Part shown: positions 891 to 57,765 of the stretch, in pieces
Numbering within the stretch: position 1 is the first letter of the stretch
How the letters are laid out: every line of letters begins with the position of its first letter
From: Eledone cirrhosa
Lineage: Eukaryota
Direction: 5' to 3'
DNA length: 64,000 nt
NCBI GenBank assembly: GCA_964016885.1
Contig: OZ024765.1
Span: 10,044,001 to 10,108,000 of the forward strand
Translations under genes and position numbers: made by a program
Notes under the pieces: model-generated
The model's database searches: none
Told to the model about the DNA's origin: nothing
The model's input: only the letters and a program-made list of their open reading frames with translations

Positions 891-927
891 ATGAGGTACC
901 TCTTGTTCCTATTTTCATCCTTTGTGG
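891..927 (+). CDS. Exon 1 of secreted Cys-rich modular protein (signal peptide MRYLLFLFSSFV)
   Basis: accATG start, basic residue then hydrophobic run, G|GTAAGT donor in phase 1, matching all downstream exons. Confidence 0.7.
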
Positions 928-9294: not shown

Positions 9295-10030
9295 CTATCT
9301 ACACATCACCCTGTCTATCTATGTTCTATATTCCACATATAAGCTATCTACACAACATCACCCAGTCTATCTATGTTCTATATTCCATATTTCAGCTATC
9401 TACACAACATCACCCAGTCTATCTATGTTCTATATTCCATATTTCAGCTATCTACACAACATCACCCAGTCTATCTATGTTCTATATTCCATATTTCAGC
9501 TATCTATACAACATCACCCAGTCTATCTATGTTCTATATTCCACATATCAGCTATCTACACAACATCACCCAGTCTATCTATGTTCTATATTCCACATAT
9601 AAGCTATCTACACAACATCACCCAGTCTATCTATGTTCTATATTCCACATATAAGCTATCTACACAACATCACCCAGTCTATCTATGTTCTATATTCCAC
9701 ATATAAGCTATCTACACAACATCACCCAGTCTATCTATGTTCTATATTCCACATATAAGCTATCTACACAACATCACCCAGTCTATCTATGTTCTATATT
9801 CCACATATAAGCTATCTACACAACATCAACCAGTCTATCTATGTTCTATATTCCACATATAAGCTATCTACACAACATCACCCAATCTATCTATGTTCTA
9901 TATTCCACATATCAGCTATCTACACAACATCACCCAGTCTATCCATGTTCTATATTCCATTATATCAGCTATCTACACAACATCACCCAGTCTATCTATG
10001 TTCTATATTCCACATTTCAGCTATCTACAC
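9295..10030. repeat. 52-bp minisatellite (~14 copies) ending at the exon 2 acceptor
   Basis: Direct tandem array. Confidence 0.95.
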
Positions 10031-10032
10031 AG

Positions 10033-10152
10033 AAGCAAGGTCCCATATTCCATGCCTTGATAAAATCCAGTTCTATGAACCATATGAACAGAATACAATC
10101 CCTATTCAAAAGTATTGTGCATGTTACAGGAAAGTAACATTAACAGATCAAT
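10033..10152 (+). CDS. Exon 2 (EARSHIPCLDKIQFYEPYEQNTIPIQKYCACYRKVTLTDQ)
   Basis: acacAG acceptor, GTAAGT donor, 120 nt, phase 1-1, open frame with a C...CxC motif. Confidence 0.75.
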
Positions 10153-13490: not shown

Positions 13491-13616
13491 CTCGTGCATT
13501 TAAACCCATTTGCACTAAGAACTATAATAGTTTTACTCATGGAGACGTGTACATAGATGGCTGCTTCTATTGTCAATGTTTGTTTGGTGTTATGAAATGT
13601 CAGCGTGCCTGTCGCA
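13491..13616 (+). CDS. Exon 3, VWC-like 6-Cys module (RAFKPICTKNYNSFTHGDVYIDGCFYCQCLFGVMKCQRACR)
   Basis: ttttccAG / GTAAGA, 126 nt, phase 1-1; C..HG....DGCxxCxCxxGxxxCxxxC pattern typical of VWC N-terminal subdomains. Confidence 0.85.
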
Positions 13617-14311: not shown

Positions 14312-16284
14312 TACTGTATTTCTAATAAAGTGCACTGCCTGTACATCAAATCCTGCTGAGCCTAGCTCTACTTTTCCTCCATTACAGCAGAGGTTCTCAA
14401 ACATTTTGGGGGCCACCACCATCCTCACTGCCACATAATACCCTCAGCGCCCCCAACTCTATTTCCAGAGAGACTTGCTTACATGCAAATTGTAAATAAT
14501 ATATAATAAATAAAATCGCTTATTTATATATAATAAATAATATAATATATACTATGTGTAAATAAATATATATTTTACTATATTTCTATATAATATGTAT
14601 CATTTGATATTCAATATACTATTATATCATCGCTAACGATGTGGGACTGGGTGCTTTTTGTCATGTCACCTACATGACCACTTTACAGTGTGGACTGGGT
14701 GCTTTTTGTCGTGTCACCTACATGGCCCCTTTACAGTGTGTGCTGGGTGCTTTTTGTTGTGTCACCTACATGACCCCTTTACAGTGTGTGCTGGGTGCTT
14801 TTTGCGTGACACCTACATGACCACTTTACAGTGTGGGCTGGGTGCTTTTTGTCATGACACCTACATGGCCTCTTTACAGAGTGGGCTGGGTGCTTTTTGT
14901 TGTGTCACCATCACGATTTAATTGACTTCTGCTTCCCAAATAATTGTTAGCCTTTTGCGTAAAGCATTCTGGCTCACAGCACCAGGAGTTCAAATCCCAA
15001 TAAGATTAACTTTACCTGTCAAACTTTTTAAAATCAATCAATTTAGCACCAATCAATTACTTGGAAAAATTATCTCTCTTTCTCTCTCTCACTCCTATTT
15101 CTATCAATCTCTCTCTCTCTCTCCCTTACTCTAGGTTAAACCGGTCATATCCGTTTAACCCTTTAACCCTTTAGCATTCACATTATTTTATATATACTAT
15201 TATATTTTAATGGTAAATGCTTTACCTCACATAATATCGAATCTATGAGATTTTGAAAGTATTTATCTTGAAAACTATACCTTAACATCAGTTTGAGCGA
15301 CCAGTTATAGCCAGTTTCAACAGAAACAGGTAGAGAATTCTGGCCGGTTTTGGCCAGTTTGAACATTAAAGGGTTAATACTAAAGTTTAATTCTCTCACC
15401 TTTTTCTGTTCAAACCAGCTGTAACCGGCCACTCATGTTAAGGTATGGTTCACAAAATAAATAATATCAAAATCTCATAGGTTCGATATTATGTGAGATA
15501 ATTATGTAAGATAAAGCTTTTACTGTGAAAATACAATAGTATATATAGGATAGGATAAAGATTCCATAACTCCTTGTGGAGTCGTAGAGGCACTGTCATA
15601 TGGCATGCCTAGGGCACATTTAACCCTGGCTGAACCTAACCCTCTCCAGGACTGAACACAGCCGATTTTTTCTACAGAGGAATAATTGACCCCAGTACTG
15701 AACTGGTACTTTTTTATGAACTTCGAAAGGATGAAAGGCAAAGTTGACACTAGTAGGATTTGAACTCAGAGCACGCAATGAGGTGGGATGAATACCATAA
15801 AGCATTCTATCCGACGTCTTAACAATTCTGCCAATTCGCTGCCATATAATACTAAATATAGAATAGGTAAATGCTAAAAGGTTAAACATATGTTACAACC
15901 AAGGGCTTTGTTTCCGGGGTGGGGGTACCAGGGAACAAGTCCCCCTCCACTTTTTCAAACGTCTATATTTTATTTTTTGTTTATTTGATATTATAAATTC
16001 TTTTTAAGCTTATTTCTTTATATCTGAACTTCATTTGAATATATAAAATCTAATTAGCGTAAAATTTTCCTTATGTGATAGGGTCCAGGAAAGGCACCAT
16101 AAGCAATTTATGGTCCTTTAAGAATCAACAAATGTTGGTTTGTCCCCCTCACATTTTTAAGGCAAACAAGGCCCCTGGTTACAACGGCAACCATAAGACT
16201 ACAGCAACAGTTAAGACCTTTTCAGGATACCCTGGAAAGGTCTTATATGAGACCCCTTAAACAAAATGCTTTGATATTTTTCAG

Positions 16285-16383
16285 AATCCACGCATGCACT
16301 TGTACTGGAGAAACGATATAATCCTGGGCTCAAGGAAGTATGTATCTGCCATATAGTAAAACGACTTGGAAATAAAATGCAAT
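16285..16383 (+). CDS. Exon 4 (KSTHALVLEKRYNPGLKEVCICHIVKRLGNKMQ)
   Basis: tttttcAG / GTGAGT, 99 nt, phase 1-1, open frame, CxC motif. Confidence 0.7.
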
Positions 16384-19138: not shown

Positions 19139-19255
19139 ATGCAGTGTGCAATCATCCAGTACTGGAAAAAACTATTCCTAAAGGTATAGATACCAGTCAT
19201 GTAGGACTCCACATCTGCCAGAAATCTAAACATATTTTATCCATTGAAACGTTCC
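19139..19255 (+). CDS. Exon 5 ([38 protein letters not shown])
   Basis: Long polypyrimidine tract + tAG, GTGAGT donor, 117 nt, phase 1-1, open frame. Confidence 0.7.
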
Positions 19256-22812: not shown

Positions 22813-22857
22813 CGAATCAGAAATATCAAGATGTATGTTATAGCGGCAGCACAACAG
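22813..22857 (+). CDS. Exon 6, short (NQKYQDVCYSGSTT)
   Basis: ttttgcAG / CAG|GTAAGT, 45 nt, phase 1-1. Confidence 0.75.
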
Positions 22858-25759: not shown

Positions 25760-25894
25760 GGTGCAGATATAAAGGCATCTTGGTAAAAGTCGGACTCATA
25801 CCAGCCACCTCCTGTGTTTGTCAACAAGATGGGAGTGTGCGTTGTTTGAAAAAAGAAGATATGTGTCTGTTACCAAAAGCGGCACCAGTTGTCG
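25760..25894 (+). CDS. Exon 7, Cys module (GCRYKGILVKVGLIPATSCVCQQDGSVRCLKKEDMCLLPKAAPVV)
   Basis: ttacAG / GTAAGT, 135 nt, phase 1-1; CxYxG..G..CxC...G.V.C motif. Confidence 0.88.
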
Positions 25895-28050: not shown

Positions 28051-28107
28051 TCACTGAACCTCCTCCTCCCGTTCTCACCAGACCAAAGTGTCATCCTTTT
28101 CCACCGC
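28051..28107 (+). CDS. Exon 8, Pro-rich linker ([19 protein letters not shown])
   Basis: Strong polypyrimidine + cAG, GTAATA donor (same as module exons), 57 nt, phase 1-1; a unique island between two microsatellites. Confidence 0.7.
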
Positions 28108-28648: not shown

Positions 28649-29462
28649 GTCTAATGCACTTTTCCATCCTTTTCTGCCACGCTTGCATGCACTCCTGGAA
28701 GGATTCTTCCGGGATCCTCCGCAGTTCCGTCGTCACGGCCTTTTTGATGTCGGTCACGTCTTCAAAACGGGTCCCCTCCAGGTCATACTCGAAGATCCAT
28801 GACTCATCACTGGTGATGACTGTCCCTAGCAAGTCTGGTTTGGTTTCAAGACGCTCGACGATGTCCGAGCACACTTGCATGCGTTGACCCTTCTGGTCAT
28901 CGTTCAGCAATTTTGGCACCATCTTCACACAGACTTTCCGCATGTCCAAATCTTCAGTGAGAATCTTCCAGACGCTGTCCCGATTCATGCCCAGCTCATT
29001 TGCCATCAGTCGAACAGTCAGCCGACGATCGCTACGCACCATTTGCCTGACGCACTCAATATTGACCGCAGTCCTGGTTGTTGGGGGCCTTCCGCTCCTG
29101 GGGTCATCTTCCACGTCCTCGCCTGCTTCTTTAAACCTCTTGCACCACTCAAAAACACGTGAGCGTGACATCGTCTCAACTCCATACACTTGCTGCAGCA
29201 ATCCCAGTGCTTCTGACGGAGTTTTCCCCAACCGTACCAGAAACTTCAAGTTTGTTCGTTGCTCTGTGCTCATTGCCTAACGACCTGAAACAGAGGACAT
29301 GTATATAAAATTATGAAGAAAAAAGTTTGATCACTGCAGAGAGCTAAGGTTACAGTTACATACACCAGGGGGATTACTTTGAAGGAGAAAACTCTCAGTG
29401 TGAAGTTTGGGTTGGAAATAAATCTTTTGTGACATCAGTCCTGGAACTTTTCTGACACACCT
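28649..29462 (-). mobile_element. Mariner transposon, internally deleted and 3'-truncated
   Basis: HTH N-terminus, [26 protein letters not shown] fused directly to the C-terminal GTRF..; one TIR at ~29435-29462. Confidence 0.9.
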
Positions 29463-30477
29463 ATGTGTATATATGTATATGTATATATGTGTGTATATAT
29501 ATGTGTGTGTGTGTGTGTGTATCATCATCATCGTTTAACGTCTCCCCCTCCTTCAACTCCAGCTTCATCATCATCATCACCATTTTCTCCTCCTTCTTCT
29601 TCCTTCTTTATCTTCTTCGTGATCACCATCATTTTCTCCTTCATCTCTTCCATCTTCATTGCCACCACCACCTCCTCCAACACCAACAACATCATCATCA
29701 TCACCATCAACACTACCACCTTCATCATCATCACCATTATCATCATCATAAACGTCATCATAATCACCATCATCACCATCATCATAGTCACCATGATTAT
29801 CATCATCACCATCATCATCAACCTCATCACCACCACCATCACCAGCATCACCATTACCATCACCATCATCACCATCATCACCACCACCATCATCATAATC
29901 CCCATCACCATCACCATCATCACCATCATCACCACCACCATCATCATAATCCCCATCACCATCACCATCACCACCATCATCACCATCGCCATCGTCATAA
30001 TCCCCATCACCAACACCACCATCAACACCATCATCATCACCGTCAACAGCATCACCAAAACCATCAATCACCACCATCAGCTCCATCGTCAACACCATCA
30101 TCATCACCGTCAACAGCATCACCAAAACCATCAATCACCACCATCAGCTCCATCATCAACACCATCATCATCACCGTCAACAGCATCACCAAAACCATCA
30201 ATCACCACCATCAGCTCCATCATCAACACCATCATCATCACCGTCAACAGCATCACCAAAACCATCAATCACCACCATCAGCTCCATCGTCAACACCATC
30301 ATCATCACCGTCAACAGCATCACCAAAACCATCAATCACCACCATCAGCTCCATCGTCAACACCATCATCATCACCGTCAACAGCATCACCAAAACCATC
30401 AATCACCACCATCAGCTCCATCATCGTCAACAACATCATCATCACCGTCAACATCTTATTCTTCTTTCTTCATCCAG

Positions 30478-30612
30478 TTCCACCCCCAGCTTGCTGGTAT
30501 CATGGCCGACTAGTGGGCTTTGGAAAAATAAAAGGGACAAATTGTATCTGCAATCGGGATCTTTCTGTGACATGTATAGAGATAGATCGTCAAATGAATG
30601 ACCCACCCAGCG
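30478..30612 (+). CDS. Exon 9, 4-Cys module (PPPACWYHGRLVGFGKIKGTNCICNRDLSVTCIEIDRQMNDPPS)
   Basis: catccAG / GTAAGT, 135 nt, phase 1-1. Confidence 0.88.
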
Positions 30613-31248
30613 GTAAGTAATGGCTTTCCTTTTGATTTTGTCTTCTCTATATTTCTCTATATATTCTCACATACTAAAGAACTAAAGACTGACCATAAAT
30701 TATCTTTACAACATGTAAAGTGAATATTTAGAAGTAGTTAACCCTTTAGTGTTCAAACCGGCCAAAACCGGCCAGAATTCTCTACCCCTTTCTGTTGAAA
30801 CTGGTTGTAACTGGTCGCTCAAATTTATGTTAAGGTATTGTTCTCAAAATAAATACTTTCAAAATCTCATAGATTCAATATTATGTGAGATAATTATGTG
30901 AGGTAAAGCCTTTACCATGAAAATATAATCACCCAAGACACCTCCAATGAGATATACCTTGGAGGAGGCCAGCTAAACGTGCATAGATGTGAGCTGTCAC
31001 ACACACACTAAAGAATAAATAGTCCAGGCTGGCCTGCAGACCCACAGAGTATGGTGGATTATACCAGGTTTTTTTCCATTCTTTGCCAGGGAACATTTCC
31101 ACGAACCAAAGTATCGTCTTCCTGTCTTCCTTCAGTTGCAACGTTTTTCGAAATATTTACTTCTGTGTTCACAGATTGATTTTCTTAGTTTCAGAAGATC
31201 CCGTTAAGGGTGAAAGCATCGATTCTTTTTTTAAACTTTAATGTGTTA

Positions 31249-31321
<73 letters not shown>

Positions 31322-31394
31322 TAGCGTCGAAGATGGACATTAAACGACGATGATGATGATATATGTCTGAATGTACTTCTCTTTTCTTCCACAG

Positions 31395-31511
31395 ATATTA
31401 CATGTTCGTACAATGGTAAAATTGTAAAAGTGGGATATATCGATGATGTCTCAGGATGTGAATGTTTAGCTTCTGGAAAGGTTAAATGTCCTACTGATTC
31501 CATGGAGCAAG
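31395..31511 (+). CDS. Exon 10, tandem module copy 1 (DITCSYNGKIVKVGYIDDVSGCECLASGKVKCPTDSMEQ)
   Basis: ttccacAG / AAG|GTAATA, 117 nt, phase 1-1. Confidence 0.88.
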
Positions 31512-31959
31512 GTAATATTTCACCTTTGTTACCACATTAGTACATCTTTTCCCAGATACCTGTATAGCTGATGTGCATATCTTCTGTTGAGAAACCAAAT
31601 ACATATGCTAACCCCTTTGTTACCAAATTAGTACTAGCTTGTCAGGTTCAGATGTGTGATGCTTGGATGTGGCTTTTCAAGCCTGGTAGACTTGCACTCC
31701 TTCACACACTGACAACAACTATGGACAACAATGGACCTCCCTGGCCGGGAGACCGTGGACCAATCAAGGAACTCAACAGATTCAGGATTGTTCTTCACAC
31801 TTTGTTGAATTCACAGCTAAGGCTTTTAGTTAAAAAATGGTAGTTATATCTACCTTATGTTTACCCTAATCTTCATAAATATATAAGAAAACTGTTGAGT
31901 TCTTCTAATCTGTTATACACTAAATTTGTTGAATAATCAACAAATTAAATAACTCATTG

Positions 31960-32029
<70 letters not shown>

Positions 32030-32777
32030 TATAAGTTGATAAAATAACAGTAAGGTGTTCAGATAATTATTTAACCCTTTAATGTTCAAACCGGCCCAAA
32101 ACTGGCCAGAATTCTCTACCTCTTTCTGTTGAAACTGGCTGTAACTGGTCACTCAAACTGATGTTAAGGTATTGTTCTCAAAATAAATACTTTCAAAATC
32201 TCATAGATTCGATATTATGTGAGATAATTATGTGAGGTAAGGCCCTCACCATAAAAATACAATAGTATCATCATCATCATCATCATCACCGTTTTACGTC
32301 CGTTCTTCCACGCTAGCATGGGTTAGTATATATAGAGTAATGTGAATGCTAAAGGGTTAATGTTCAAACTGGCCAAAACCGGCCAGAATTCTCTTCCTCT
32401 TTCTGTTGAAACTGGCTGTAACTGGTCACTCAAACTGAGTTACATGGTAGCGAGACCTGGGCACTGTGTGTAGAAGACTTGCGTAGATTAGAAAGAAATG
32501 AAGCCTGCATGCTTTGAATATACGTGAACGACAAAGCATGAACAAATTGAGAGAGAGACTGAGCATAAGAGGAATCAAGTGCTGTGTGCAGGAGAGGAGG
32601 ATGCGTTGGTATGGACATGTGATGCGTATGAAGGATGACAGCTGCTTAAAAAGGTGCAGAGCATTAAAAGTTGATGGAAGCTGCGGAGTGGGGAGACCCA
32701 AAAAGACCTGGATGAGGTGATAAAAGCCGACCTTCATATGTAGGTTTTTTTTTTGTATTCTTCAATAAACAAAACTC

Positions 32778-32912
32778 ATTATTTCTGAAGACGGCGGGTA
32801 GTGAAGACGTATGTATTTTTTCCTACTATGATATTTTGTAATATGTTTTACATAGATCAATAATTGAATGAACATGCAGGGAACTATGCTCCAGAAACGA
32901 TCGTAAAATAAT
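32778..32912 (+). ncRNA. Type I hammerhead with ~100-nt domain II insert
   Basis: ATTATTT-CTGAAGA-[~100 nt]-GAAA-CGATCG-TA-AAATAAT. Confidence 0.6.
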
Positions 32913-33282
32913 GTGTTTTACTATGAATTAACAGTTCTGTGTTTAATTTCATTGTTTTAATATTTCTATTTTGACTCTGTATCCAATTGAATTATATCGT
33001 TGAAAATGTTTGTATTTTAAAATTTGCTTCACGACATCTACATACGGATTACATTGAGTTCTTCATACGGTTTAGAACCTACCATTGAGTGGTAGATTTA
33101 TCTGTGTGTATATATATATATAAATATATCCAAAATTAAATTAAGGGTGTCATGTCCGAGAGAGATACGCCATATCCACTGCAGAATATGCTCAAAGTGC
33201 TTTCACACTTTACAAATTATTCCCTGTGATTGTTTCATATGTTTATTTTAGATATATATATATGTCAATCAATTTCTAGTTG

Positions 33283-33316
<34 letters not shown>

Positions 33317-33705
33317 GGAGGCACATGGCTTAGTACGGAGGCACATGGCTTAGTATGGAGGCATATGGCTTAGTGGTTAGAGCATTGGCCTTGCAATCGA
33401 AAGGTTGTGAGTTCAATTCTCAGACCGGGTGATGTGTTGTTTCCTTGAGCAAGACACTTTATTTCACATTGCTCCAGTTTACTCAGCTGTAGAAAGGAGA
33501 TGATAGGGACTGGGGTCCATATCATTCCACTGCAAAGTGGACGTGGAGGTGCCACGGCAAAAAAAAAGCACCCAGCACTCACTGTAAATGAGGTTGGTGT
33601 TAGGAAGGGCATCCAGCTGTAGAAATCAAGCCAGAATCAGTTCCCGTCCCACCCTTGCAAGCAGGGAAAAAGTGGATGTAAAATGAAATGATGATGATGA
33701 TGATA
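33317..33705 (+). mobile_element. tRNA-derived SINE with triplicated 20-bp head
   Basis: GGAGGCAYATGGCTTAGT x3, then A/B boxes, body and (ATG)n tail. Confidence 0.85.
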
Positions 33706-33799
33706 TATATATATATATATATATACTAGCATCGAAGATGGACATTAAACGACAATGATGATGATATATGTCTGAATGTACTTCTCTTTTCTTCCACAG

Positions 33800-33916
33800 A
33801 TATTACATGTTCGTACAATGGTAAAATTGTAAAACTGGGATATATCGATGTTGACACAGGATGTGAATGTTTATCTTCTGGAAAGGTTAAATGTCCTACT
33901 GATTCCATGGAGCAAG
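33800..33916 (+). CDS. Exon 11, tandem module copy 2 (..KLGYIDVDTGCECLSSG..)
   Basis: Same splice sites; 5 amino-acid differences from copy 1. Confidence 0.85.
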
Positions 33917-35178
33917 GTAATATTTCACCTTTGTTACCACATTAGTACATCTTTTCCCAGATACCTGTATAGTTGATGTGCATATCTTCTGTTGAGAAGC
34001 CAAATACATATGCTAACCCCTTTGTTACCAAATTAGTACTAGCTTGTCAGGTTCAGATGTGTGATGCTTGGATGTGGCTTTTCAAGCCTGCTAGACTTGC
34101 ACTCCTTCACACACTGACAACAACTATGGACAACAATGGACCTCCCTGGCCTGAAGTCTCCCAGGACGGGAGACCTTGGACCAATCAAGGAACTCAACAG
34201 ATTCAGGATTATTCTTCACACTTTGTTGAATTCACAGCTAAGGCTTTTAGTTCAAAAATGGTAGTTATATCTACCCTAATCTTCATAAATATATAAGAAA
34301 GCTGTTGAGTGCTGCTAATCTGTTATACACTAAATTTGTTGAATAATCAACAAATTACATAACTCATTGCTTATATATACATATAGAGGGAGAATTCCAT
34401 AAGTTGATAAAATAACAGTAAGGTGTTCAGATAATTATTTAACCCTTTAATGTTCAAACCGGCCAAAACCGGCCAGAATTCTCTACCTCTTTCTGTTGAA
34501 ACTGGCTGTAACTGGTCACTCAAACTGATGTTAAGGTATTGTTCTCAAAATAAATACTTTCAAAATCTCATAGATTCGATATTATGTGAGATAATTATGT
34601 GAGGTAAGGCCCTCACTATAAAAATACAATAGTATCATCATCATCACCATCACCGTTTTACGTCCGTTCTTCCACGCTAGCATGGGTTAGTATATATAGA
34701 GTAATGTGAATGCTAAAGGGTTAATGTTCAAACCGGCCAGAATTCTCTTCCTCTTTCTGTTGAAACTGGCTGTAACTGGTCACTCAAACTGAGTTACATG
34801 GTAGCGAGACCTGGGCACTGTGTGTAGAAGACTTGCGTAGATTAGAAAGAAATGAAGCCTGCATGCTCTGATGGATGTGTAATACTAATATACGCGAACG
34901 GCAAAGCATGAACAAATTGAGAGAGAGACTGAGCATAAGAGGAATCAAATGCTGTGTGCAGGAGAGGAGGTTGCGTTGGTATGGACATATGATGCGTATG
35001 AAGGATGACAGCTGCTTAAAAAGATGCAGAGCATTAAAAGTTGATGGAATCCGCGGAGTGGGGAGACCCAAAATGATGATGATGATGATATATATATATA
35101 TATGCTAGCGTCGAAGATGGACATTAAACGACAATGATGATGATATATGTCTGAATGTATTTCTCTTTTCTTCCACAG

Positions 35179-35295
35179 ATATTAAATGTTCGTACAATGG
35201 TAAAATTGTAAAAGTGGGATATATCGATGATGTCTCAGGATGTGAATGTTTATCTTCTGGAAAGGTTAAATGTCCTACTGATTCCATGGAGCAAG
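35179..35295 (+). CDS. Exon 12, tandem module copy 3
   Basis: Same splice sites, open frame (DIKC...LSSG). Confidence 0.85.
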
Positions 35296-36557
35296 GTAAT
35301 ATTTCACCTTTGTTACCACATTAGTACATCTTTTCCCAGATACCTGTATAGCTGATGTGCATATCTTCTGTTGAGAAGCCAAATACATATGCTAACCCCT
35401 TTGTTACCAAATTAGTACTAGCTTGTCAGGTTCAGATGTGTGATGCTTGGATGTGGCTTTTCAAGCCTGCTAGACTTGCACTCCTTCACACACTGACAAC
35501 AACTATGGACAACAATGGACCTCCCTGGCCTGAAGTCTCCCAGGACGGGAGACGTTGGACCAATCAAGGAACTCAACAGATTCAGGATTATTCTTCACAC
35601 TTTGTTGAATTCACAGCTAAGGCTTTTAGTTCAAAAATGGTAGTTATATCTACCCTAATCTTCATAAATATATAAGAAAACTGTTGAGTGCTGCTAATCT
35701 GTTATACACTAAATTTGTTGAATAATCAACAAATTACATAACTCATTGCTTATATATATATATAGAGGGAGAATTCCATAAGTTGATAAAATAACAGTAA
35801 GGTGTTCAGATAATTATTTAACCCTTTAATGTTCAAACCGGCCAAAACCGGCCAGAATTCTCTACCTCTTTCTGTTGAAACTGGCTGTAACTGGTCACTC
35901 AAACTGATGTTAAGGTATTGTTCTCAAAATAAATACTTTCAAAATCTCATAGATTCGATATTATGTGAGATAATTATGTGAGGTAAGGCCCTCACTATAA
36001 AAATACAATAGTATCATCATCATCACCATCACCGTTTTACGTCCGTTCTTCCACGCTAGCATGGGTTAGTATATATAGAGTAATGTGAATGCTAAAGGGT
36101 TAATGTTCAAACCGGCCAGAATTCTCTTCCTCTTTCTGTTGAAACTGGCTGTAACTGGTCACTCAAACTGAGTTACATGGTAGCGAGACCTGGGCACTGT
36201 GTGTAGAAGACTTGCGTAGATTAGAAAGAAATGAAGCCTGCATGCTCTGATGGATGTGTAATACTAATATACGCGAACGGCAAAGCATGAACAAATTGAG
36301 AGAGAGACTGAGCATAAGAGGAATCAAATGCTGTGTGCAGGAGAGGAGGTTGCGTTGGTATGGACATATGATGCGTATGAAGGATGACAGCTGCTTAAAA
36401 AGATGCAGAGCATTAAAAGTTGATGGAATCCGCGGAGTGGGGAGACCCAAAATGATGATGATGATGATATATATATATATATGCTAGCGTCGAAGATGGA
36501 CATTAAACGACAATGATGATGATATATGTCTGAATGTATTTCTCTTTTCTTCCACAG

Positions 36558-36674
36558 ATATTAAATGTTCGTACAATGGTAAAATTGTAAAAGTGGGATA
36601 TATCGATGATGTCTCAGGATGTGAATGTTTATCTTCTGGAAAGGTTAAATGTCCTACTGATTCCATGGAGCAAG
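36558..36674 (+). CDS. Exon 13, tandem module copy 4
   Basis: Identical to copy 3, 1379 bp downstream. Confidence 0.82.
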
Positions 36675-37936
36675 GTAATATTTCACCTTTGTTACCACAT
36701 TAGTACATCTTTTCCCAGATACCTGTATAGCTGATGTGCATATCTTCTGTTGAGAAGCCAAATACATATGCTAACCCCTTTGTTACCAAATTAGTACTAG
36801 CTTGTCAGGTTCAGATGTGTGATGCTTGGATGTGGCTTTTCAAGCCTGCTAGACTTGCACTCCTTCACACACTGACAACAACTATGGACAACAATGGACC
36901 TCCCTGGCCTGAAGTCTCCCAGGACGGGAGACGTTGGACCAATCAAGGAACTCAACAGATTCAGGATTATTCTTCACACTTTGTTGAATTCACAGCTAAG
37001 GCTTTTAGTTCAAAAATGGTAGTTATATCTACCCTAATCTTCATAAATATATAAGAAAACTGTTGAGTGCTGCTAATCTGTTATACACTAAATTTGTTGA
37101 ATAATCAACAAATTACATAACTCATTGCTTATATATACATATAGAGAGAGAATTCCATAAGTTGATAAAATAACAGTAAGGTGTTCAGATAATTATTTAA
37201 CCCTTTAATGTTCAAACCGGCCAAAACCGGCCAGAATCCTCTACCTCTTTCTGTTGAAACTGGCTGTAACTGGTCACTCAAACTGATGTTAAGGTATTGT
37301 TCTCAAAATAAATACTTTCAAAATCTCATAGATTCGATATTATGTGAGATAATTATGTGAGGTAAGGCCCTCACAATAAAAATACAATAGTATCATCATC
37401 ATCATCATCACCGTTTTACGTCCGTTCTTCCACGCTAGCATGGGTTAGTATATATAGAGTAATGTGAATGCTAAAGGGTTAATGTTCAAACCGGCCAGAA
37501 TTCTCTTCCTCTTTCTGTTGAAACTGGCTGTAACTGGTCACTCAAACTGAGTTACATGGTAGCGAGACCTGGGCACTGTGTGTAGAAGACTTGCGTAGAT
37601 TAGAAAGAAATGAAGCCTGCATGCTCTGATGGATGTGTAATACTAATATACGCGAACGGCAAAGCATGAACAAATTGAGAGAGAGACTGAGCATAAGAGG
37701 AATCAAATGCTGTGTGCAGGAGAGGAGGTTGCGTTGGTATGGACATATGATGCGTATGAAGGATGACAGCTGCTTAAAAAGATGCAGAGCATTAAAAGTT
37801 GATGGAAGCCGCGGAGTGGGGTGACCCAAAGTAATGATGATGATGATATATATATATATATGCTAGCGTCGAAGATGGACATTAAACGACAATGATGATG
37901 ATATATGTCTGAATGTACTTCTCTTTTCTTCCACAG

Positions 37937-38053
37937 ATATTACATGTTCGTACAATGGTAAAATTGTAAAAGTGGGATATATCGATGATGTCTCAGGATG
38001 TGAATGTTTAGCTTCTGGAAAGGTTAAATGTCCTACTGATTCCATGGAGCAAG
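37937..38053 (+). CDS. Exon 14, tandem module copy 5
   Basis: Same as copy 1, splice sites intact. Confidence 0.85.
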
Positions 38054-38508
38054 GTAATATTTCACCTTTGTTACCACATTAGTACATCTTTTCCCAGATA
38101 CCTGTATAGCTGATGTGCATATCTTCTGTTGAGAAGCCAAATACATATGCTAACCCCTTTGTTACCAAATTAGTACTAGCTTGTCAGGTTCAGATGTGTG
38201 ATGCTTGGATGTGGCTTTTCAAGCCTGCTAGACTTGCACTCCTTCACACACTGACAACAACTATGGACAACAATGGACCTCCCTGGCCTGAAGTCTCCCA
38301 GGATGGGAGACCTTGGACCAATCAAGGAACTCAACAGATTCAGGATTATTCTTCACACTTTGTTGAATTCACAGCTAAGGCTTTTAGTTCAAAAATGGTA
38401 GTTATATCTACCCTAATCTTCATAAATATATAAGAAAGCAGTTGAGTGCTTCTAATCTGTTATACACTAAATTTGTTGAATAATCAACAAATTAAATAAC
38501 TCATTGCT

Positions 38509-38539
<31 letters not shown>

Positions 38540-39323
38540 TTCCATAAGTTGATAAAATAACAGTAAGGTGTTCAGATAATTATTTAACCCTTTAATGTTC
38601 AAACCGGCCAAAACCGGCCAGAATTCTCTACCTCTTTCTGTTGAAACTGGCTGTAACTGGTCACTCAAACTGATGTTAAGGTATTGTTCTCAAAATAAAT
38701 ACTTTCAAAATCTCATAGATTCGATATTATGTGAGATAATTATGTGAGGTAAGGCCCTCACAATAAAAATACAATAGTATCATCATCATCATCATCACCG
38801 TTTTACGTCCATTCTTCCACGCTAGCATGGGTTAGTATATATAGAGTAATGTGAATGCTAAAGGGTTAATGTTCAAACCAGCCAGAATTCTCTTCCTCTT
38901 TCTGTTGAAACTGGCTGTAACTGGTCACTCAAACTGAGTTACATGGTAGCGAGACCTGGGCACTGTGTGTAGAAGACTTGCGTAGATTAGAAAGAAATGA
39001 AGCCTGCATGCTCTGATGGATGTGTAATACTAATATACGCGAACGGCAAAGCATGAACAAATTGAGAGAGAGACTGAGCATAAGAGGAATCAAATGCTGT
39101 GTGCAGGAGAGGAGGTTGCGTTGGTATGGACATATGATGCGTATGAAGGATGACAGCTGCTTAAAAAGATGCAGAGCATTAAAAGTTGATGGAATCCGCG
39201 GAGTGGGGAGACCCAAAATGATGATGATGATGATATATATATATATATGCTAGCGTCGAAGATGGACATTAAACGACAATGATGATGATATATGTCTGAA
39301 TGTACTTCTCTTTTCTTCCACAG

Positions 39324-39440
39324 ATATTAAATGTTCGTACAATGGTAAAATTGTAAAAGTGGGATATATCGATGATGTCTCAGGATGTGAATGTTTAGCT
39401 TCTGGAAAGGTTAAATGTCCTAATGATCCCGCAGGGCCAG
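39324..39440 (+). CDS. Exon 15, tandem module copy 6 (ends ..CPNDPAGP)
   Basis: Splice sites intact, divergent 3' linker. Confidence 0.85.
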
Positions 39441-40101
39441 GTAATATTTCACCTTTGTTACCACATTAGTACATCTTTTCCCAGATACCTGTATAGCTGA
39501 TGTGCATATCTTCTGTTGAGAAGCCAAATACATATGTTAACCCCTTTGTTACCAAATTAGTACTAGCTTGTCAGGTTCAGATGTGTGATGCTTGGATGTG
39601 GCTTTTCAAGCCTGCTAGACTTGCACTCCTTCACACACTGACAACAACTATGGACAACAATGGACCTCCCTGGCCTGAAGTCTTGCGTCAGGTTGCCTGT
39701 GAACCCTCACGATACCACGGTGATCGTAGTTCACTGGTTCTCTTTCAACATATACATATATATATATATGTGTATATGTATATATATATATACATATACA
39801 TATATATACATATATATATATACATATATATATACTTATACATATATATATATATACATATACATATATATATACATATACATATGCATATATATATATA
39901 TATACATATATACATATACATATATACATATACATATATATATATATATACATATATATATACATATAATATATACATATATATATACATATCATATACA
40001 TATACATATATATATATATACATATACATATATATATATACATATATATACATATATATACATATACATATATATACATATATATATATACATATACATA
40101 T

Positions 40102-42418: not shown

Positions 42419-42772
42419 CATATATATATACATATATATATATACATATATACATATATACATATATATATACATATATATATATATACATATATATACA
42501 TATATATATACATATATATATACATATATATATATATACACATATATATAATTAAGTTAAAGATGTACATCCATATATGTATACTGAAATACTAGTATGT
42601 ATATGAATACACACACGTATACATATGTAGATGTACCAAGTTTTTTTCACTGGTCACTTTACTGTGAGTGGCCAGCTATTCTGTATGTAAACACACAGAC
42701 AAACCGGTTTTTAGAGTCATACTGGTTTTTGAGGAAACACCTTTCCTCTATTCTCCAGAAAGCCAGACAAGG

Positions 42773-42817
42773 AATATTGAACTAGTTTCGTTGTTGTTAC
42801 AACTCATCAGCAATATT
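42773..42817 (-). ncRNA. Minimal type I hammerhead in 468-bp unit, copy 1
   Basis: AATATTG-CTGATGA-GTTG/CAAC-GAAA-CTAG-TT-CAATATT. Confidence 0.85.
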
Positions 42818-43240
42818 TACCTATCTTCCGGCCTCTCTAGAGAATCGTAAAAGCACATATCGTTATATGCTTTTTCTATGAAAATTAGTAGTGGGCAGAC
42901 TAATTTGCATAGAGTGTGAGTAAGTACCGGTTCAACGGAGACGATAAAAACAAATAACGAAACGAAATTAAATTTCGTTTCGTTTGTAACTCACTTTTGT
43001 ATGACTGACGCTTAAACAATTAAGTTAAAGATGTACATCCATATATGTATACTGAAATACTAGTATGTATATGAATACACACACGTATACATATGTAGAT
43101 GTACCAAGTTTTTTTCACTGGTCACTTTACTGTGAGTGGCCAGCTATTCTGTATGTAAACACACAGACAAACCGGTTTTTCGAGTCATACTGGTTTTTGA
43201 GGAAACACCTTTCCTCTATTCTCCAGAAAGCCAGACAAGG

Positions 43241-43285
43241 AATATTGAACTAGTTTCGTTGTTGTTACAACTCATCAGCAATATT
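43241..43285 (-). ncRNA. Minimal type I hammerhead in 468-bp unit, copy 2
   Basis: Identical motif 468 bp from copy 1. Confidence 0.85.
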
Positions 43286-43628
43286 TACCTATCTTCCGGC
43301 CTCTCTAGAGAATCGTAAAAGTGACCAGTGAAAAAAACTTGGTACATCTACATATGTATACGTGTGTGTATTCATATACATACTAGTATTTCAGTATACA
43401 TATATGGATGTACATCTTTAACTTAATTGTTTAAGCGTCAGTCATACAAAAGTGAGTTACAAACGAAACGAAATTTAATTTCGTTTCGTTATTTGTTTTT
43501 ATCGTCTCCGTTGAACCGGTACTTACTCACACTCTATGCAAATTAGTCTGCCCACTACTAATTTTCATAGAAAAAGCATATAACGATATGTGCTTTTACG
43601 ATTCTCTAGAGAGGCCGGAAGATAGGTA

Positions 43629-43673
43629 AATATTGCTGATGAGTTGTAACAACAACGAAACTAGTTCAATATT
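43629..43673 (+). ncRNA. Minimal type I hammerhead in the inverted 468-bp unit
   Basis: Same motif on the + strand. Confidence 0.85.
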
Positions 43674-44239
43674 CCTTGTCTGGCTTTCTGGAGAATAGAG
43701 GAAAGGTGTTTCCTCAAAAACCAGTATGACTCTAAAAACCGGTTGTCTGTGTGTTTACATACAGAATAGCTGGCCACTCACAGTAAAGTGACCAGTGAAA
43801 AAAAACTTGGTACATCTACATATGTATACGTGTGTGTATTCATATACATACTAGTATTTCAGTATACATATATGGATGTACATCTTTAACTTAATTGTTT
43901 AAGCGTCAGTCATACAAAAGTGAGTTACAAACGAAACGAAATTTAATTTCGTTTCGTTATTTGTTTTTATCACATATATATATATATACATATATATATA
44001 TACATATATATACATATACATATATATATATATATACATATATGATGTATATATATATATATATATGTATATACATATATGATATATTTTGCACTCAGCC
44101 TCACCGCTATGTCCGGGTCAGTATAAAATCGCTAACTTCCTGCAAATCCAAGATCGACAAATTCCTATTGCAGGAGTCTGCAATATAATGGTTTTTGACG
44201 ACAGAACATAGGATTTACTTCTTCAGCAAGTCTTTCGTT

Positions 44240-48652: not shown

Positions 48653-48904
48653 TTACATGTTTGAACAAAGGTGAAATTGTGGAATTGGGCTACACTGACC
48701 CAGATACAGGATGTAAATGTACAATTCCTGGAGCAATGACCTGTACTAAAGAGGATAGTACAGGGGGTGGTGGTGGAGGGTGTCATGTAGCGCTTAGTGG
48801 AGAGCTTGTTAGAGGGTGTGGTAACGGGCATGGTGGATGGCCTGATAATGTACCCGGAACATGGCCCCCCGTATTACCCCCACCGGAGGCTGAGAACGAG
48901 ACTG
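48653..48904 (+). CDS. Exon 16, module plus Gly/Pro-rich extension (VTCLNKGEIVELGYTDPDTGCKCTIPGAMTC...GGGGGGC...WPPVLPPPEAENET)
   Basis: atccacAG / GTAATT, 252 nt, phase 1-1; flanking intron sequence is homologous to that of exons 10-15. Confidence 0.88.
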
Positions 48905-49024: not shown

Positions 49025-49231
49025 CCCTTTAGCATTCACATTACTCTATGAATACTACTGTATTTTCATGGTAAAGGTTTTATCTCACATAATATCGAAT
49101 CTATGAGATGTTGATATTATTTATTTTGAGAACAATACCTTAACATCAGTTTGAGCGACCAGTTACAGCCAGTTTCAACAGAAAGAGGTAGAGAATACTG
49201 ACTGGTTTTGGCCGGTTTAAACATTAAAGGG
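49025..49231. mobile_element. piggyBac-type MITE (TTAA-CCCTTTA...TAAAGGG-TTAA); copies at 15167-15373, 53433-53650 and in each tandem unit
   Basis: TTAA target duplication and CCC/GGG termini. Confidence 0.8.
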
Positions 49232-50308
49232 TTAAGGTCAGTATTTCCATTAAGCGATGTGCATGTCTTCTGATGAGAAGCCAAATACATATGCTAACCC
49301 CTTTTATACGAAATTAGTACTCTTTACAGGATAACAATATAATTATTACAGTAAGTATTCCCATTAGGCGATGTACATATCTTCTTATGACAACCCAAAT
49401 ACATATGCAAATCAATTCAAGATATTTAGGAACTTTTTCAATTTGCAGGGAAGAAAGGAAGTATGTAAAATGTTATGTTAACATATCTATATTTTCAATG
49501 TGTAAATTTACATACATATTTACACAGTCTACATATAGAGAGTTCACCAGGAAAATGTATACACATTTCAGCAAAAGAAAAAAAATTTATAAATATTTTT
49601 CTTGCTTAAATACCTCTTTCGAAAGTTATATCTAAACATATATATATGTTTTTTATCCTCTCCTTTGTTCTGTCATACGCCATAACAAAGGAGAGGCACA
49701 AAAACAAAGAAAAGAATCCCCAGTCACTGAAGAGGTCACAGATTGTGTGACGAAAGAACTTTGACAATATATGAACAATCATCTGGTTGTGGAACCAACC
49801 AACCAACCGGAAATTTATAAATTCCTAAATTTATAAATTTATTATAATAAATTGAAGTGAAAGCAAGTGTTGTGTGTGTTTCTTATTGGCAACATGACCC
49901 TCCCAAAGTATAACAATATCGGTTTAAACACACGTTTTCAGATAAAGAATCTTGCTAAACAAATTCAGAAACGAAATATATATATAACGAAGGAAATGTG
50001 GTAAGGAACCAGATGGACCACAACGCATCAAAGTACTCAATACTTAGGGTAGTATAGTAATAATAATAAATTTGAAGACTAAAATCCAAAGAGGGCTCGA
50101 TTAGGATAAATATATATCAAATATATAAGAACCGTAGAGCAAATGTTTATTAAAATAACAGATTAAAGTTTAAGCAAAGAATTGCTGCTTTCACCCTTAA
50201 CGGGATCTTATATATATATATGAGTACCTATGAATACCTGAGAGTACCTGGGAGTACCTAGAGTACCTGAGACTAACTATGTGTATATTCTTTCTTTTTC
50301 TTGTACAG

Positions 50309-50434
50309 ATGTTCAATGTTTGTTTAAAGGTGAACCAAAACCAATTGGAAGAATCAATTCATTTTGTAATTGTACGAAAGATGGCAGAGTTTTATGTAAC
50401 ACTACCGATGATTTTCATATGGATGACGTTCCAG
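50309..50434 (+). CDS. Exon 17, 4-Cys module (DVQCLFKGEPKPIGRINSFCNCTKDGRVLCNTTDDFHMDDVP)
   Basis: ttgtacAG / CAG|GTAAGA, 126 nt, phase 1-1. Confidence 0.88.
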
Positions 50435-50658
50435 GTAAGACTCCTCTTACTTCCCTTTCACCTTCCTCAGGTAAAGCTCCCCCTTCTTCACCTCACCCTT
50501 CACCTTCCACCTGTACAGGTAAGACTCCTCCTACTGCTATTTCACCTTCCTCAAGTAAGCTCCTCCTCCTTCACCTCCTCCTTCCACCTGTACAGGTAAA
50601 GCTCCTCCTCCTCCTTCCTCAGGTAAGCCTCCTCCTTCCTCAGGTAAGCTCCTCCTCC

Positions 50659-51988
50659 TTAACTACTAAAGGGTTAACTACTAAAGCGTTAACTACTAAA
50701 GGGTTAACTACTAAAGGTTAACTACTAAAGGGTTAACTATTAAAGGTTAACTACTAAAGGGTTAACTACTAAAGGTTAACTACTAAAGGGTTAACTATTA
50801 AAGGTTAACTACTAAAGGGTTAACTACTAAAGGTTAACTACTAAAGGGTTAACTATTAAAGGGTTAACTACTAAAGGGTTAACTACTAAAGGTTAACTAC
50901 TAAAGGTTAACTACTAAAAGTTAACTACTAAAGGTTAACTACTAAAGGGTTATCTACTAAAGGTTAACTACTAAAGGGTTAACTATTAAAGGTTAACTAC
51001 TAAAGGGTTATCTACTAAAGGTTAACTACTAAAAGTTAACTACTAAAGGTTAACTACTAAAGGGTTAACTACTAAAGGGTTATCTACTAAAAGTTAACTA
51101 CTAAAGGGTTAACTACTAAAGGTTAACTACTAAAGGTTTAACTATTAAAGGTTAACTACTAACGGGTTAACTACTAAAGGGTTATCTACTAAAGGTTAAC
51201 TACTAAAGGTTAACTACTAAAGGGTTAACTACTAAAGGGTTATCTACTAAAGGTTAACTACTAAAGGTTAACTACTAAAGGGTTAACTACTAAAGGGTTA
51301 TCTACTAAAGGTTAACTACTAAAAGTTAACTACTAAAGGTTAACTACTAAAGGGTTAACTACTAAAGGGTTATCTACTAAAGGTTAACTACTAAAGGGTT
51401 ATCTACTAAAGGTTAACTACTAAAAGTTAACTACTAAAGGTTAACTACTAAAGGGTTAACTACTAAAGGGTTAACTATTAAAGGTTAACTACTAAAGGTT
51501 AACTACTAAAGGTTAACTACTAAAGGTTTACTACTAAAGGTTAACTACTAAAGGTTAACTACTAAAGGTACTAAAGGTTTACTACTAAAGGTTAACTACT
51601 AAAGGTACTAAAGGTTTACTACTAAAGGTTAACTACTAAAGGTACTAAAGGTTTACTACTAAAGGTTAACTACTAAAGGTACTAAAGGTTTACTACTAAA
51701 GGTTAACTACTAAAGGTACTAAAGGTTTACTACTAAAGGTTAACTACTAAAGGTACTAAAGGTTTACTACTAAAGGTTAACTACTAAAGGTACTAAAGGT
51801 TTACTACTAAAGGTTAACTACTAAAGGTACTAAAGGTTTACTACTAAAGGTTAACTACTAAAGGTACTAAAGGTTTACTACTAAAGGTTAACTACTAAAG
51901 GTACTAAAGGTTTACTACTAAAGGTTAACTACTAAAGGTACTAAAGGTTTACTACTAAAGGTTAACTACTAAAGGTACTAAAGGGTTA
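50659..51988. repeat. 14/15-bp minisatellite TTAACTACTAAAGG(G), turning into a 37-bp higher-order unit
   Basis: Direct tandem array. Confidence 0.95.
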
Positions 51989-54625: not shown

Positions 54626-54735
54626 AGAAACCATGTTCCTATCAAGGGGAACTTGTAGGTCCCGGTCAGATTGGAAATTCAGGATGTAACTGCACAAACG
54701 AAACTGTTGTATGTGATAAACGAAAAGGTTGGTAA
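54626..54735 (+). CDS. Exon 18, 4-Cys module (EKPCSYQGELVGPGQIGNSGCNCTNETVVCDKRKGW*); terminal, or spliced after 54727
   Basis: cttcAG acceptor and module motif. In-frame TAA at 54733-54735, but an in-phase G|GTTGGT donor after 54727 leaves the 3' end of the gene unresolved. Confidence 0.8.
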
Positions 54736-55570: not shown

Positions 55571-55799
55571 GATATGGTTTTATAAATATAGTTTTCCATT
55601 TATTTAATATTGTAAATATACTCCAAATATTTGTCGAGTGCTTTTATATCAGTTATAAATATTTACTAGTTGTAACCCAACAATTTTAAATATAACTTTC
55701 CATGTATATATATATATATATATATTTATATACATATATATATATACATATACATATGTATATACATACCTATATACTCAGCCTTATTACCCCAAGCAG

Positions 55800-57765
55800 C
55801 CTAGATTCACCCTCAAGGACCACAAGGAAGATTTTATTAGCAGACCCTCGGTTAGGCTTATCTGCCCCTCCAAGTCTGACCTGGGGATTATTAGTAAGGG
55901 AATCTTGGATAGCGTTATTCCCCTGGTTAGAGAAAAAACTTTCCTTGAGCTTTGGGGTAACACTAGTGAGGTCATTACGTGGTTCTCTACGGATTGTGGT
56001 CGTGACTCACTAAAATTCATCCAATTTGATATTGATGCTTATTATACATCTATATCTCCTATTATCCTCAATAAGGCCCTCATCCTAGCCATGCAGAGGG
56101 GGGCAATTACTAGGCCACAGATAGATATTGTTCTCGCTGCACGTAAAACCATTATCATGTTTGAGGATAATCTATGGACGAGAAAAAACACACCTGATAA
56201 TTTTGACATTACTATGGGGTCGAGTGACTCTGCTCAAGTCACCGACTTAGTTGGACTATACCTCCTCAATGAACTGCATAGTAACTTCCCTTTCCTTAGG
56301 GGCGGGTTGTACCGGGATGACGCCCTACTCTCCATAGATACTAGTAAGTATAATATAGTGCGCATTAGGAAAAAGCTGCATAGCTTTTTTAAAACTTTTA
56401 ACCTATCCATTACTATGGATGTAAATGATAGAACTGTGAACTTCCTAGATGTTACACTCGACTTGGATAACCATACGTACACACCGTACCATAAGCCCAA
56501 TGAATTGCTGACTTACGTGAATACCAACTCCAACCACCCTAGGTCTGTCATCAGCGGTATACTGAAGGGCGTATCTAACAGAATAAGTTCACTCTCACAT
56601 AGTGAGGAGGCGTTTGACTCGCAGGCTGATTACTATAACGACGCCTTAGCTAGATCCGGCTTTAGGGACAAATTGTATTACACCCAGGGAAATAATGGTC
56701 CTAATAGTAGCTCTACCAGTGTTGTTATAACACATAATATGTCCATTGGTAATCGAGGTGTCGCGAATGGGAGGGTTCTAAATGCCGGTGGAATGAAACA
56801 GCAGGGCACCATTAGTCTAAGTAATAACAATAGAGGTGTCGTGAACGGGAGGTTTCTAGATGCCGGTGGAATGAACCAGCAGGGCACCATTAGTCTAAGT
56901 AATAGCAATGGTAGGCCTCGCAGCTCCCCGCATAGACTAGGTGAGCATAGGAACCGTAGAAATAATAATGCTAATAATACTGATGGAAATAGAAAGAATA
57001 AAAAGAATAGAAGAAGATTGAATACATACTTCAACCCCCCTTTTAATTCTGAAGTGGCTATAAATATTCCTAGGGCCTTCTTCTCTTCCTAGGGCCTTCT
57101 TCTCTGTGCTAGAACGGAACTTCCCTCCTGGTAATAGGTACCACTCTATCCTCAATAAGAATGTTGTTAAACTTTCGTATTCTACAACCCAAAATCTGGC
57201 CTCTCATCTGGCCATTACTAATAATAAGAAAATAAAGGAAGGCCTGGACAACCTAAGCCTAGGGGAAAACACGGTAGTGGATAGAGTGGGCAGAAACACT
57301 GGTGGTGATCTTTCTGAGAATAGCATCACCAGAGGTTGTAACTGTAGAAGGGCTTCAGGCTGCCCCCTGAATGGTTTCTGCCTTGTTAGAAACATAGTTT
57401 ATGCGTGTGATGTGGTAACTACGGCGTCCACTATGACCTATATAGGATCAACTTCCACCCCCTTTAAGACCAGGTTTAACTCTCATCAATGCACTTTTAG
57501 ACATAATAAACTGAGGAACTCCACCTCCTTGGCAGCGTACGTCCATAATTTAAAAAATGCACGAACACCTTACACACTTACTTGGCGGCAGGTTGCTAAA
57601 TCCCATCCATATACTCCTCATAGTAGAGTATGTAACCTGTGCCTTGCCGAATCCCACTCTATTATATTTGCTAAATGCCCTCTACTAAATAGAAAGTCTG
57701 AAATTTTTTCCTCTTGCCCCCACCGAATATTAAGCTCTTTCTTCTACTTTAAACCTGTTAGCTAG
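55800..57765 (+). pseudogene. Penelope-like RT/GIY-YIG polyprotein broken by one frameshift
   Basis: 19-bp tandem duplication TCCTAGGGCCTTCTTCTCT (57068-57105); removing one copy joins ORFs 55905.. and 57106.. in frame. Confidence 0.88.

Follow-up and report, generated by a model that had tools for sequence, protein, structure and literature searches.

A young tandem array of six module exons in a predicted secreted cysteine-rich protein gene of the octopus Eledone cirrhosa

Tandem exon growth in described systems

That proteins can lengthen when exons duplicate in tandem is a familiar finding, but most of the described cases are too old for their steps to be read. Here, we discuss six near-identical copies of one 117-bp exon in the octopus Eledone cirrhosa, which lie in a 64,000-nucleotide stretch of contig OZ024765.1 (assembly GCA_964016885.1, positions 10,044,001 to 10,108,000 of the forward strand). 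This stretch is called the window hereafter, and its first letter is position 1. The array is a young, mosaic case of this already known mode of growth, and the explanation that we consider probable overall is that unequal crossovers built it within the gene of a predicted secreted, cysteine-rich protein.

Near-identical multi-exon units, in which exons are repeated together with their introns and domain number is polymorphic, are familiar from human LPA kringle IV type 2 and from NBPF/Olduvai. The octopus array is similar, as it also consists of near-identical exon-plus-intron units that alter the number of domains. In teleosts, a zinc-finger exon of piccolo b was amplified to 8-16 copies through single gains and losses attributed to unequal crossover, in independent lineages (PMC3484663), so that there, too, one domain-coding exon was amplified many times. 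The part of that study used here proposes crossovers within exons, brings in no transposons and compares the copies across fish lineages. In contrast, the octopus units are nearly identical including their introns, and both transposon fragments and the junction are still readable in them.

Homogenised repeats of variable length are also known from a mollusc extracellular protein, abalone VERL, which, in the portion of the study considered here, has 22 repeats of about 153 aa, positive selection at repeats 1 and 2 and the partner lysin (PMC2704960). Unlike these, the octopus modules are 39 aa long, each with its own exon and intron. More generally, the sections of two surveys on which we draw indicate that domain repeats expand in the middle of a run, with single-domain steps typical of exon-bounded extracellular domains (PMC1553488), and that most tandem-duplicated exons end up constitutive (PMC8373072). 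Both surveys cover older events, whereas the octopus array is young enough for the steps to be read. Its unit bounds and deletion junction can still be made out, and both an older sister exon and an outgroup are at hand for comparison, so that it can be tested directly in which order the events took place and how homogenisation is balanced against divergence.

The exon array

The window sequence contains six intact 117-bp exons in tandem, each open in phase 1-1. The whole array extends over 31304..39683 on the plus strand and consists of six exon-bearing heads and five spacers, with an (AT)33 run (31254-31319) as its left bound. The copies lie, on the same strand, at 31395..31511 (copy 1), 33800..33916 (copy 2), 35179..35295 (copy 3), 36558..36674 (copy 4), 37937..38053 (copy 5) and 39324..39440 (copy 6); the exons of copies 1 and 5 are identical, as are those of copies 3 and 4. 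All six are bounded by a near-identical acceptor, ttccacAG, and by the donor GTAATA. Measured from anchor to anchor, the units are spaced by 2405, 1379, 1379, 1379 and 1387 bp, and the sixth is 428 bp long, after which the array stops at 39683.

Pairwise identity among units 2-5 is 98.6-99.35%, corresponding to 9-19 substitutions per 1379 bp (0.65-1.4% divergence). Unit 1 agrees with units 2-5 at 97.4-98.2% of positions; for unit 6, compared with the other units over 420-428 columns, the identity is 96.5-97.9%. No two of the six units are identical, and the overall range is 96.5-99.4%. In adjacency, homology, 3n length, phases and splice sites, the copies belong to the tandemly duplicated symmetric (class 1-1) exons. 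An earlier note on this DNA, made from the letters and the reading frames, had described six intact 117-bp exons on near-identical units and had called their phases symmetric; the coordinates, phases (1-1 in 6/6), splice sites and unit identities found here agree with that description.

Copy number in sequencing reads

Contigs from four of 11 read runs (X1, X4, X5 and X6) were compared with unit 30460-33700; X1 is a public run of unrecorded type, and X5 represents a second organism, here called organism B. The baseline was the single-copy exon just 5' of the array (30478..30612, plus strand), which encodes a four-cysteine (4-Cys) module. In X1, the contig over this exon shows no differing letter and has a depth of 8.79. 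Depth rises to 32.5 in the contig of the module exon (ratio 3.7) and to 30 in a contig with the 11-bp gap of the short units (ratio 3.4). The ratios expected for six assembled copies, from the mean 31-mer multiplicity on these paths, are 4.4 and 4.1. The module exon is multi-copy, therefore, in independently assembled contigs.

These depths bear on the possibility that the array is an assembly artefact, in which haplotypes or read errors were lined up one after another. The observed ratios are somewhat under the six-copy expectation, and no contig among those listed spans a whole unit. On the other hand, the excess over the neighbouring exon includes the short-unit form, and six distinct units are more than two haplotypes could yield. 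Since the exon depth is 3.7 times that of the neighbouring single-copy exon, the array is not simply an artefact; we regard such an origin as very improbable and the presence of the array in the genome as nearly certain. The ratios in X1 favour several copies but do not fix their exact number.

For organism B, the exon is represented by one contig, which is 83% identical to it and has a depth of 19.4. Because this value falls within the range of its seven other listed contigs (13.6-25.7), organism B is suggested to carry the exon as a single copy. Neither X4, a second sample with the same label as X1, nor X6 gave a contig over the module exon, and neither the tandem junction nor splice joins were seen among the 15 joins listed, which were taken up by high-copy repeats. 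As to individuals, we lean towards the prediction, made from the sequence, that copy number is polymorphic between them.

Spacers and the deletion junction

About 985 bp (32704..33687, plus strand) are found in unit 1 only, and their loss joins a piece resembling a long interspersed nuclear element (LINE) to the tail of a short interspersed nuclear element (SINE). In the short units, the LINE-like piece, which ends with ...CCCAAAA at 32703, is fused to the (ATG)n tail at ~33687-33690 via A-run microhomology, and units 2-5 share this single junction. The 1379-bp unit had previously been equated with the 2405-bp unit minus ~32702-33687. The deletion and its junction are confirmed, but the equation is not exact, as the short units differ from unit 1 by a further 24-34 substitutions and seven insertions or deletions (16, 11, 34-42, 1, 3, 10 and 16 bp).

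The LINE-like 3' fragment (32439..32734, plus strand; truncated in the short units) is one that we take to be RTE-like from its translated motif; a longer copy of it gave no Pfam match. The SINE (33355..33726, plus strand) is a high-copy element with a tRNA-like head and an (ATG)n(AT)n tail. Its head, at 33366-33423, scored 28.1 bits (E 9e-4) with Rfam RF00005, just missing the gathering score of 29, and the contig depth of the SINE is very high in the read runs. Thus, of the two element labels in the earlier note, SINE is supported by the head and the depth, whereas RTE is left without support from Pfam.

Every spacer also contains a high-copy element resembling a miniature inverted-repeat transposable element (MITE), found in unit 1 at 32072..32360 (strand not assigned). 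Reverse-oriented copies of it at 15222-15374 and 49080-49232 are 94.8% identical and could pair in the pre-mRNA, with looping, back-splicing or editing as conceivable results; such inverted copies are expected by chance, because the copy number of the MITE-like family is very high.

The older sister exon

An exon at 48653..48904 (plus strand) contains a core related to the array exon, followed by a 135-nt in-frame Gly/Pro-rich extension. The 36 nt upstream of it are identical to the acceptor flank of the array at 35/36 positions, and its downstream intron matches the array intron at 84-91%, in pieces, while the core matches the array exon at 59/90 nt. Because both flanks are shared, the exon is an older duplicate of the array exon, as had been proposed when it was listed as exon 16. 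The Gly/Pro-rich extension (48745-48904 region) carries two extra cysteines and a sequon.

Variation, exchange and selection among the copies

Sequence exchange has occurred between the copies, and the units are mosaics: with microsatellites set aside, 13 of the 36 site pairs that are informative fail the four-gamete test, including the two exon sites T/K and A/S. With identities above 95% and mosaic variants, the array resembles the concertedly evolving arrays of VERL type. Because its copies exchange sequence, the array may look younger than its true age. Its earlier description as very recent holds for the last wave, units 2-5, but not for the spacer of unit 1 (about 2.5% diverged), the mosaics and the older-looking parts of copies 2 and 6.

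All of the 11 variable codons among the six copies change the amino acid, a feature on which the earlier note had not remarked, and the copies encode four distinct peptides. In copy 2, a stretch of 22 nt holds four amino-acid changes found in no other copy; in copy 6, seven private changes lie within 16 nt and create a Pro/Gly linker where the other copies have an acidic one. Variable sites number 13/117 in the exon and 6/302 in the flanks common to all six copies (Fisher p 2e-4). Between copies 2 and 3, the counts are 5/117 in the exon and 5/1262 in the rest (p 7e-4), and between copies 5 and 6 they are 8/117 and 1/311 (p 2e-4); the proportion of nonsynonymous differences (pN) between copies is up to 0.14, and that of synonymous differences (pS) is 0-0.03.

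These counts would suit a diversifying cassette, in which exchange homogenises the introns and positive selection keeps or drives the differences between modules, as in arms-race recognition proteins. The comparison with the sister exon, nearly identical in its acceptor flank but diverged in its core, points the same way. However, selection is only suggested, because 11 of the 13 exon sites sit in the two tight clusters of copies 2 and 6 (clustering p < 1e-4). If the variable exon sites are reduced to four events, the excess in the exon disappears (p 0.48), and a comparison limited to copies 1-5 yields 6/117 in the exon against 29/1133 (p 0.13). Few silent changes are expected anyway, since about 79% of the exon sites are replacement sites, and the pairwise tests were picked after inspection of the data. 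Furthermore, two pairs of exons are identical, and over longer times pN is lower than pS, both against exon 48653 (0.27-0.33 versus 0.43-0.50) and against organism B (0.12 versus 0.29, from 10 listed differences in 21 codons only). A diversifying cassette is therefore a tentative reading that we find rather unlikely.

The same clusters are open to a neutral explanation, according to which repeats promote duplication, modules that keep the frame are tolerated, copy number drifts, and the clusters are leftovers of older copies. Two of the four private bases of copy 2 match organism B, and the alignment of organism B to copy 1 ends at 31493, one base before the private tail of copy 6; for this reason, both clusters may be ancestral leftovers. 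In addition, the introns are repeat-rich, and at the age of the array intact exons are expected without selection. Module duplication recurs, however, in the homologues and earlier in the window gene, so that the family seems to keep such events. As a mechanism, the neutral accident overlaps with the unequal-crossover array that we prefer and differs from it only on whether the copies matter; we give it slightly less than an even chance.

The host gene

The array belongs to a predicted gene at ~891-54735, with 16 exons linked in phase 1-1; joined, they read without interruption through 638 codons to a stop and encode 59 cysteines. The predicted protein would have ~640-660 aa and, judging from the sequence, is likely secreted and cysteine-rich. 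It comprises a signal-like start, one six-cysteine (6-Cys) module, one 2-Cys remnant and then eleven 4-Cys modules, six of which come from the array, with linkers that are Pro-rich or acidic. This open frame, together with homologues of the same layout, upholds the earlier view that the copy number of a domain has expanded through a symmetric module exon of a real gene.

The remaining exons of the model are on the plus strand. The predicted first coding exon (891..927), with a hydrophobic, signal-peptide-like start judged by eye, is followed by an exon for the end of the signal-like peptide and a 3-Cys segment (10021..10152), and then by exons for a 6-Cys VWC/pacifastin-like module that matches homologue residues 56-91 (13491..13616), a degenerate 2-Cys module (19139..19255), a 45-bp linker (22813..22857) and a 4-Cys module (25760..25894). 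Downstream of the sister exon, the model continues with another 4-Cys module exon (50309..50434), which has repeated donor-like sites after it, and with the predicted last coding exon (54626..54735), also a 4-Cys module, with the stop at 54733-54735. A 57-bp Pro-rich linker exon in phase 1-1 (28051..28107, plus strand) is a candidate outside the 16-exon frame test. An exon-like stretch at 16285-16337 has a good acceptor, and its donor is GTATGT, but it was dropped from the model, as its 53 nt lead from phase 1 to phase 0; it would fit the phase 1-1 chain only with another donor.

Repeats adjoin two of these exons. A 52-bp minisatellite (14 copies, 9303-10031) repeats the acceptor and the first bases of exon 10021-10152, and 13 acceptor-like motif matches lie 5' of the acceptor chosen for this exon. 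Behind exon 50309-50434, the repeat at 50432-50660 contains donor-like sites of the form CAGGTAA(G/A), six in all. Three of them (50435, 50471 and 50519) keep the frame, and splicing from them would add Pro/Ser-rich lengths to the linker.

Homologues in octopuses and the use of the copies

A search profile built from eight window modules gave eight matches among 1.84 billion proteins. Three are octopus proteins (P0001, P0003 and P0007), and the other five were dropped, being by eye unrelated repeats. Word-index protein searches for longer relatives returned none among 1089 and none among 3868 candidates, while the search for proteins of near length returned two of 1703. P0001 (CAI9741643, Octopus vulgaris, uncharacterised) matched the profile with E 3.7e-14, and two of its neighbouring tandem modules are identical at 28/28 core residues. 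The O. sinensis locus LOC115225789, also uncharacterised, has six RefSeq isoforms (P0009-P0014); three of them hold two neighbouring modules together, one is without the first and two are without the second, and the splice sites of the linkers shift. P0001 and LOC115225789 share the layout of the window gene (signal-like start, one 6-Cys module, run of 4-Cys modules), and the window modules match this family by profile with a probability of 93.8% (E 1.7e-7). By inference, this kinship and the repeat landscape place the window in an octopod. Our literature searches turned up no study of the gene or of its family, and none that names LOC115225789. In the gene models, the family duplicates and skips single modules in a manner that is not mutually exclusive. 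Single-module skipping is annotated in the RefSeq homologue, and by analogy occasional skipping probably applies to the window exons.

P0003 and P0007, which are octopus kielin/chordin-like proteins, score as Pfam VWC (PF00093) and Pacifastin_I (PF05375). They have 14-18 tandem 6-Cys VWC/pacifastin-like repeats, several of which are near-identical at the C-terminus of P0007, suggesting a similar recent expansion.

The isoforms also bear on whether the six exons form a mutually exclusive cassette like that of Dscam, with one of the six per mRNA. Four distinct peptides among six copies would fit such a cassette, and the inverted MITE-like copies could loop out blocks of exons. Yet the introns exceed 1.2 kb, which leaves no steric block, joint inclusion keeps the frame because the exons are symmetric, the longest homologue isoforms contain neighbouring modules together, and the MITE-like family has a very high copy number. 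We consider a Dscam-like cassette improbable. As far as the sequence allows, most copies are probably spliced in, and we think it likely that more than one copy enters the same mRNA.

The module and its fold

Each array exon encodes a 39-residue module with the invariant cysteines C3, C21, C23 and C31. In sequence, this module agrees with the 6-Cys repeats of P0003 and P0007 at about 42% of positions. With the repeats of P0003 it has the C-x-C and G-x-V-x-C register in common, while the second and sixth cysteines are absent. In pacifastin, the second and sixth cysteines form one disulfide. Because the missing cysteines pair with each other there, a whole bridge would have been lost, leaving a pattern of fibronectin type I (FnI) kind. 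FnI modules have four cysteines in the order C...CxC...C, which is also that of the array module, and a conserved core Trp.

Membership in the known families was nevertheless rejected. The VWC pattern has ten cysteines; the array module has four only, and neither the window modules nor P0011 and P0001 match VWC (PF00093) at the curated Pfam cut-off. The pacifastin inhibitor has six cysteines, with its reactive loop held between C5 and C6; the array module lacks C2 and C6 and has no match to Pacifastin (PF05375). As to FnI, there is no Pfam or PDB-sequence match and no Trp in the array module. Exon 13491, tried as CFC, scored at the Pfam cut-off only (24.2 versus 23.2 bits), which was not taken as membership.

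The AlphaFold model of the module has a mean predicted local distance difference test score of 82 and a predicted template modelling (TM) score of 0.49. In the VIA structure comparison, the eight best matches are FnI- or VWC-containing chains, including those of mucin/VWC type. In Foldseek, the three best are of VWC/VWF type, with TM scores of 0.58-0.59 for the collagen IIA and CCN3 vWC domains, and the ESM Atlas gave, for a homologue, leads below 0.9 only (pacifastin, VWC2L, Fn1_2). Compared with P0003, P0007 and FnI, the register is common and the fold matches are weak but consistent with one another, and the array module differs by its two absent cysteines and its lack of a Pfam score. A role as a binding bead of FnI/VWC kind is likely for it, although it stands outside both families by their own tests.

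Proposed history and function

The history that we propose would begin with an old duplication, leading to exon 48653. A later duplication, probably seeded in (AT)n/(ATG)n runs that precede the exon or lie at the unit edges, would have given the long 2.4-kb unit; a single microhomology deletion of ~985 bp would then have created, once, the 1.38-kb unit; and misaligned (unequal) crossovers would have raised the number of short units and redistributed variants between the copies. Each exon would contribute a 39-residue beta-sheet module of FnI/VWC type, that is, a 6-Cys VWC/pacifastin-like repeat without its second and sixth cysteines. The protein would thereby have gained five extra disulfide-bonded modules, raising its 4-Cys modules from six to 11, and, on the structural model, may act outside the cell as a flexible, multivalent binder, with a valency that increases with the number of modules.

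Several points weigh against this explanation. An exon-bearing head stands at both array ends, with no spacer remnant beyond unit 6 or before unit 1; because a simple tandem model predicts a spacer beyond one end, one further loss is needed. With the nearest baseline, the X1 depth implies about five copies and not six, and with five other baselines the excess is 2.6-4.1-fold; the depth of contigs is a rough gauge, and the window itself may have been assembled from the sample behind X1. The gene model rests on splice signals only, and the homologue isoforms and the duplicate module are gene predictions. The homologues, which are 30-50% identical per module, have fewer modules and need not be orthologues. 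No module matched VWC, pacifastin or FnI in Pfam, and the PDB sequence search returned 0. The structural matches are weak, both in VIA (best Z 3.2, rmsd 2.4, 36 aligned, with 3mql; no Z>=5 among 48161 chains) and in Foldseek (best E 1.9, with E ~2-3 for the top matches).

Other elements of the window

Two long open reading frames at 55659-57765, which a frameshift at a duplicated 19-bp stretch separates, gave a weak GIY-YIG match (E 0.013, below cut-off) and presumably belong to a Penelope-like retroelement. By eye, a mariner-type transposase-like fragment lies on the minus strand at 28660-29280, and a block of ~1.4 kb at 42550-43970 consists of nested direct and inverted copies of non-microsatellite sequence.

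Significance

A broader reading, which we find doubtful, would make this an octopus-restricted, secreted recognition family with a minimal, independently derived FnI-like module, diversifying by three routes at once: copy number through crossover, module choice through exon skipping, and positive selection against the homogenisation of introns. If that were true, the array would show this diversification under way, in a protein of immunity, of the venom gland or of gamete recognition. If the replacement-only differences between copies hold in population data, the locus would point to a fast-evolving, unstudied recognition protein of octopuses and would indicate how, outside vertebrates, an FnI-like module could arise from a 6-Cys VWC/pacifastin-like repeat.

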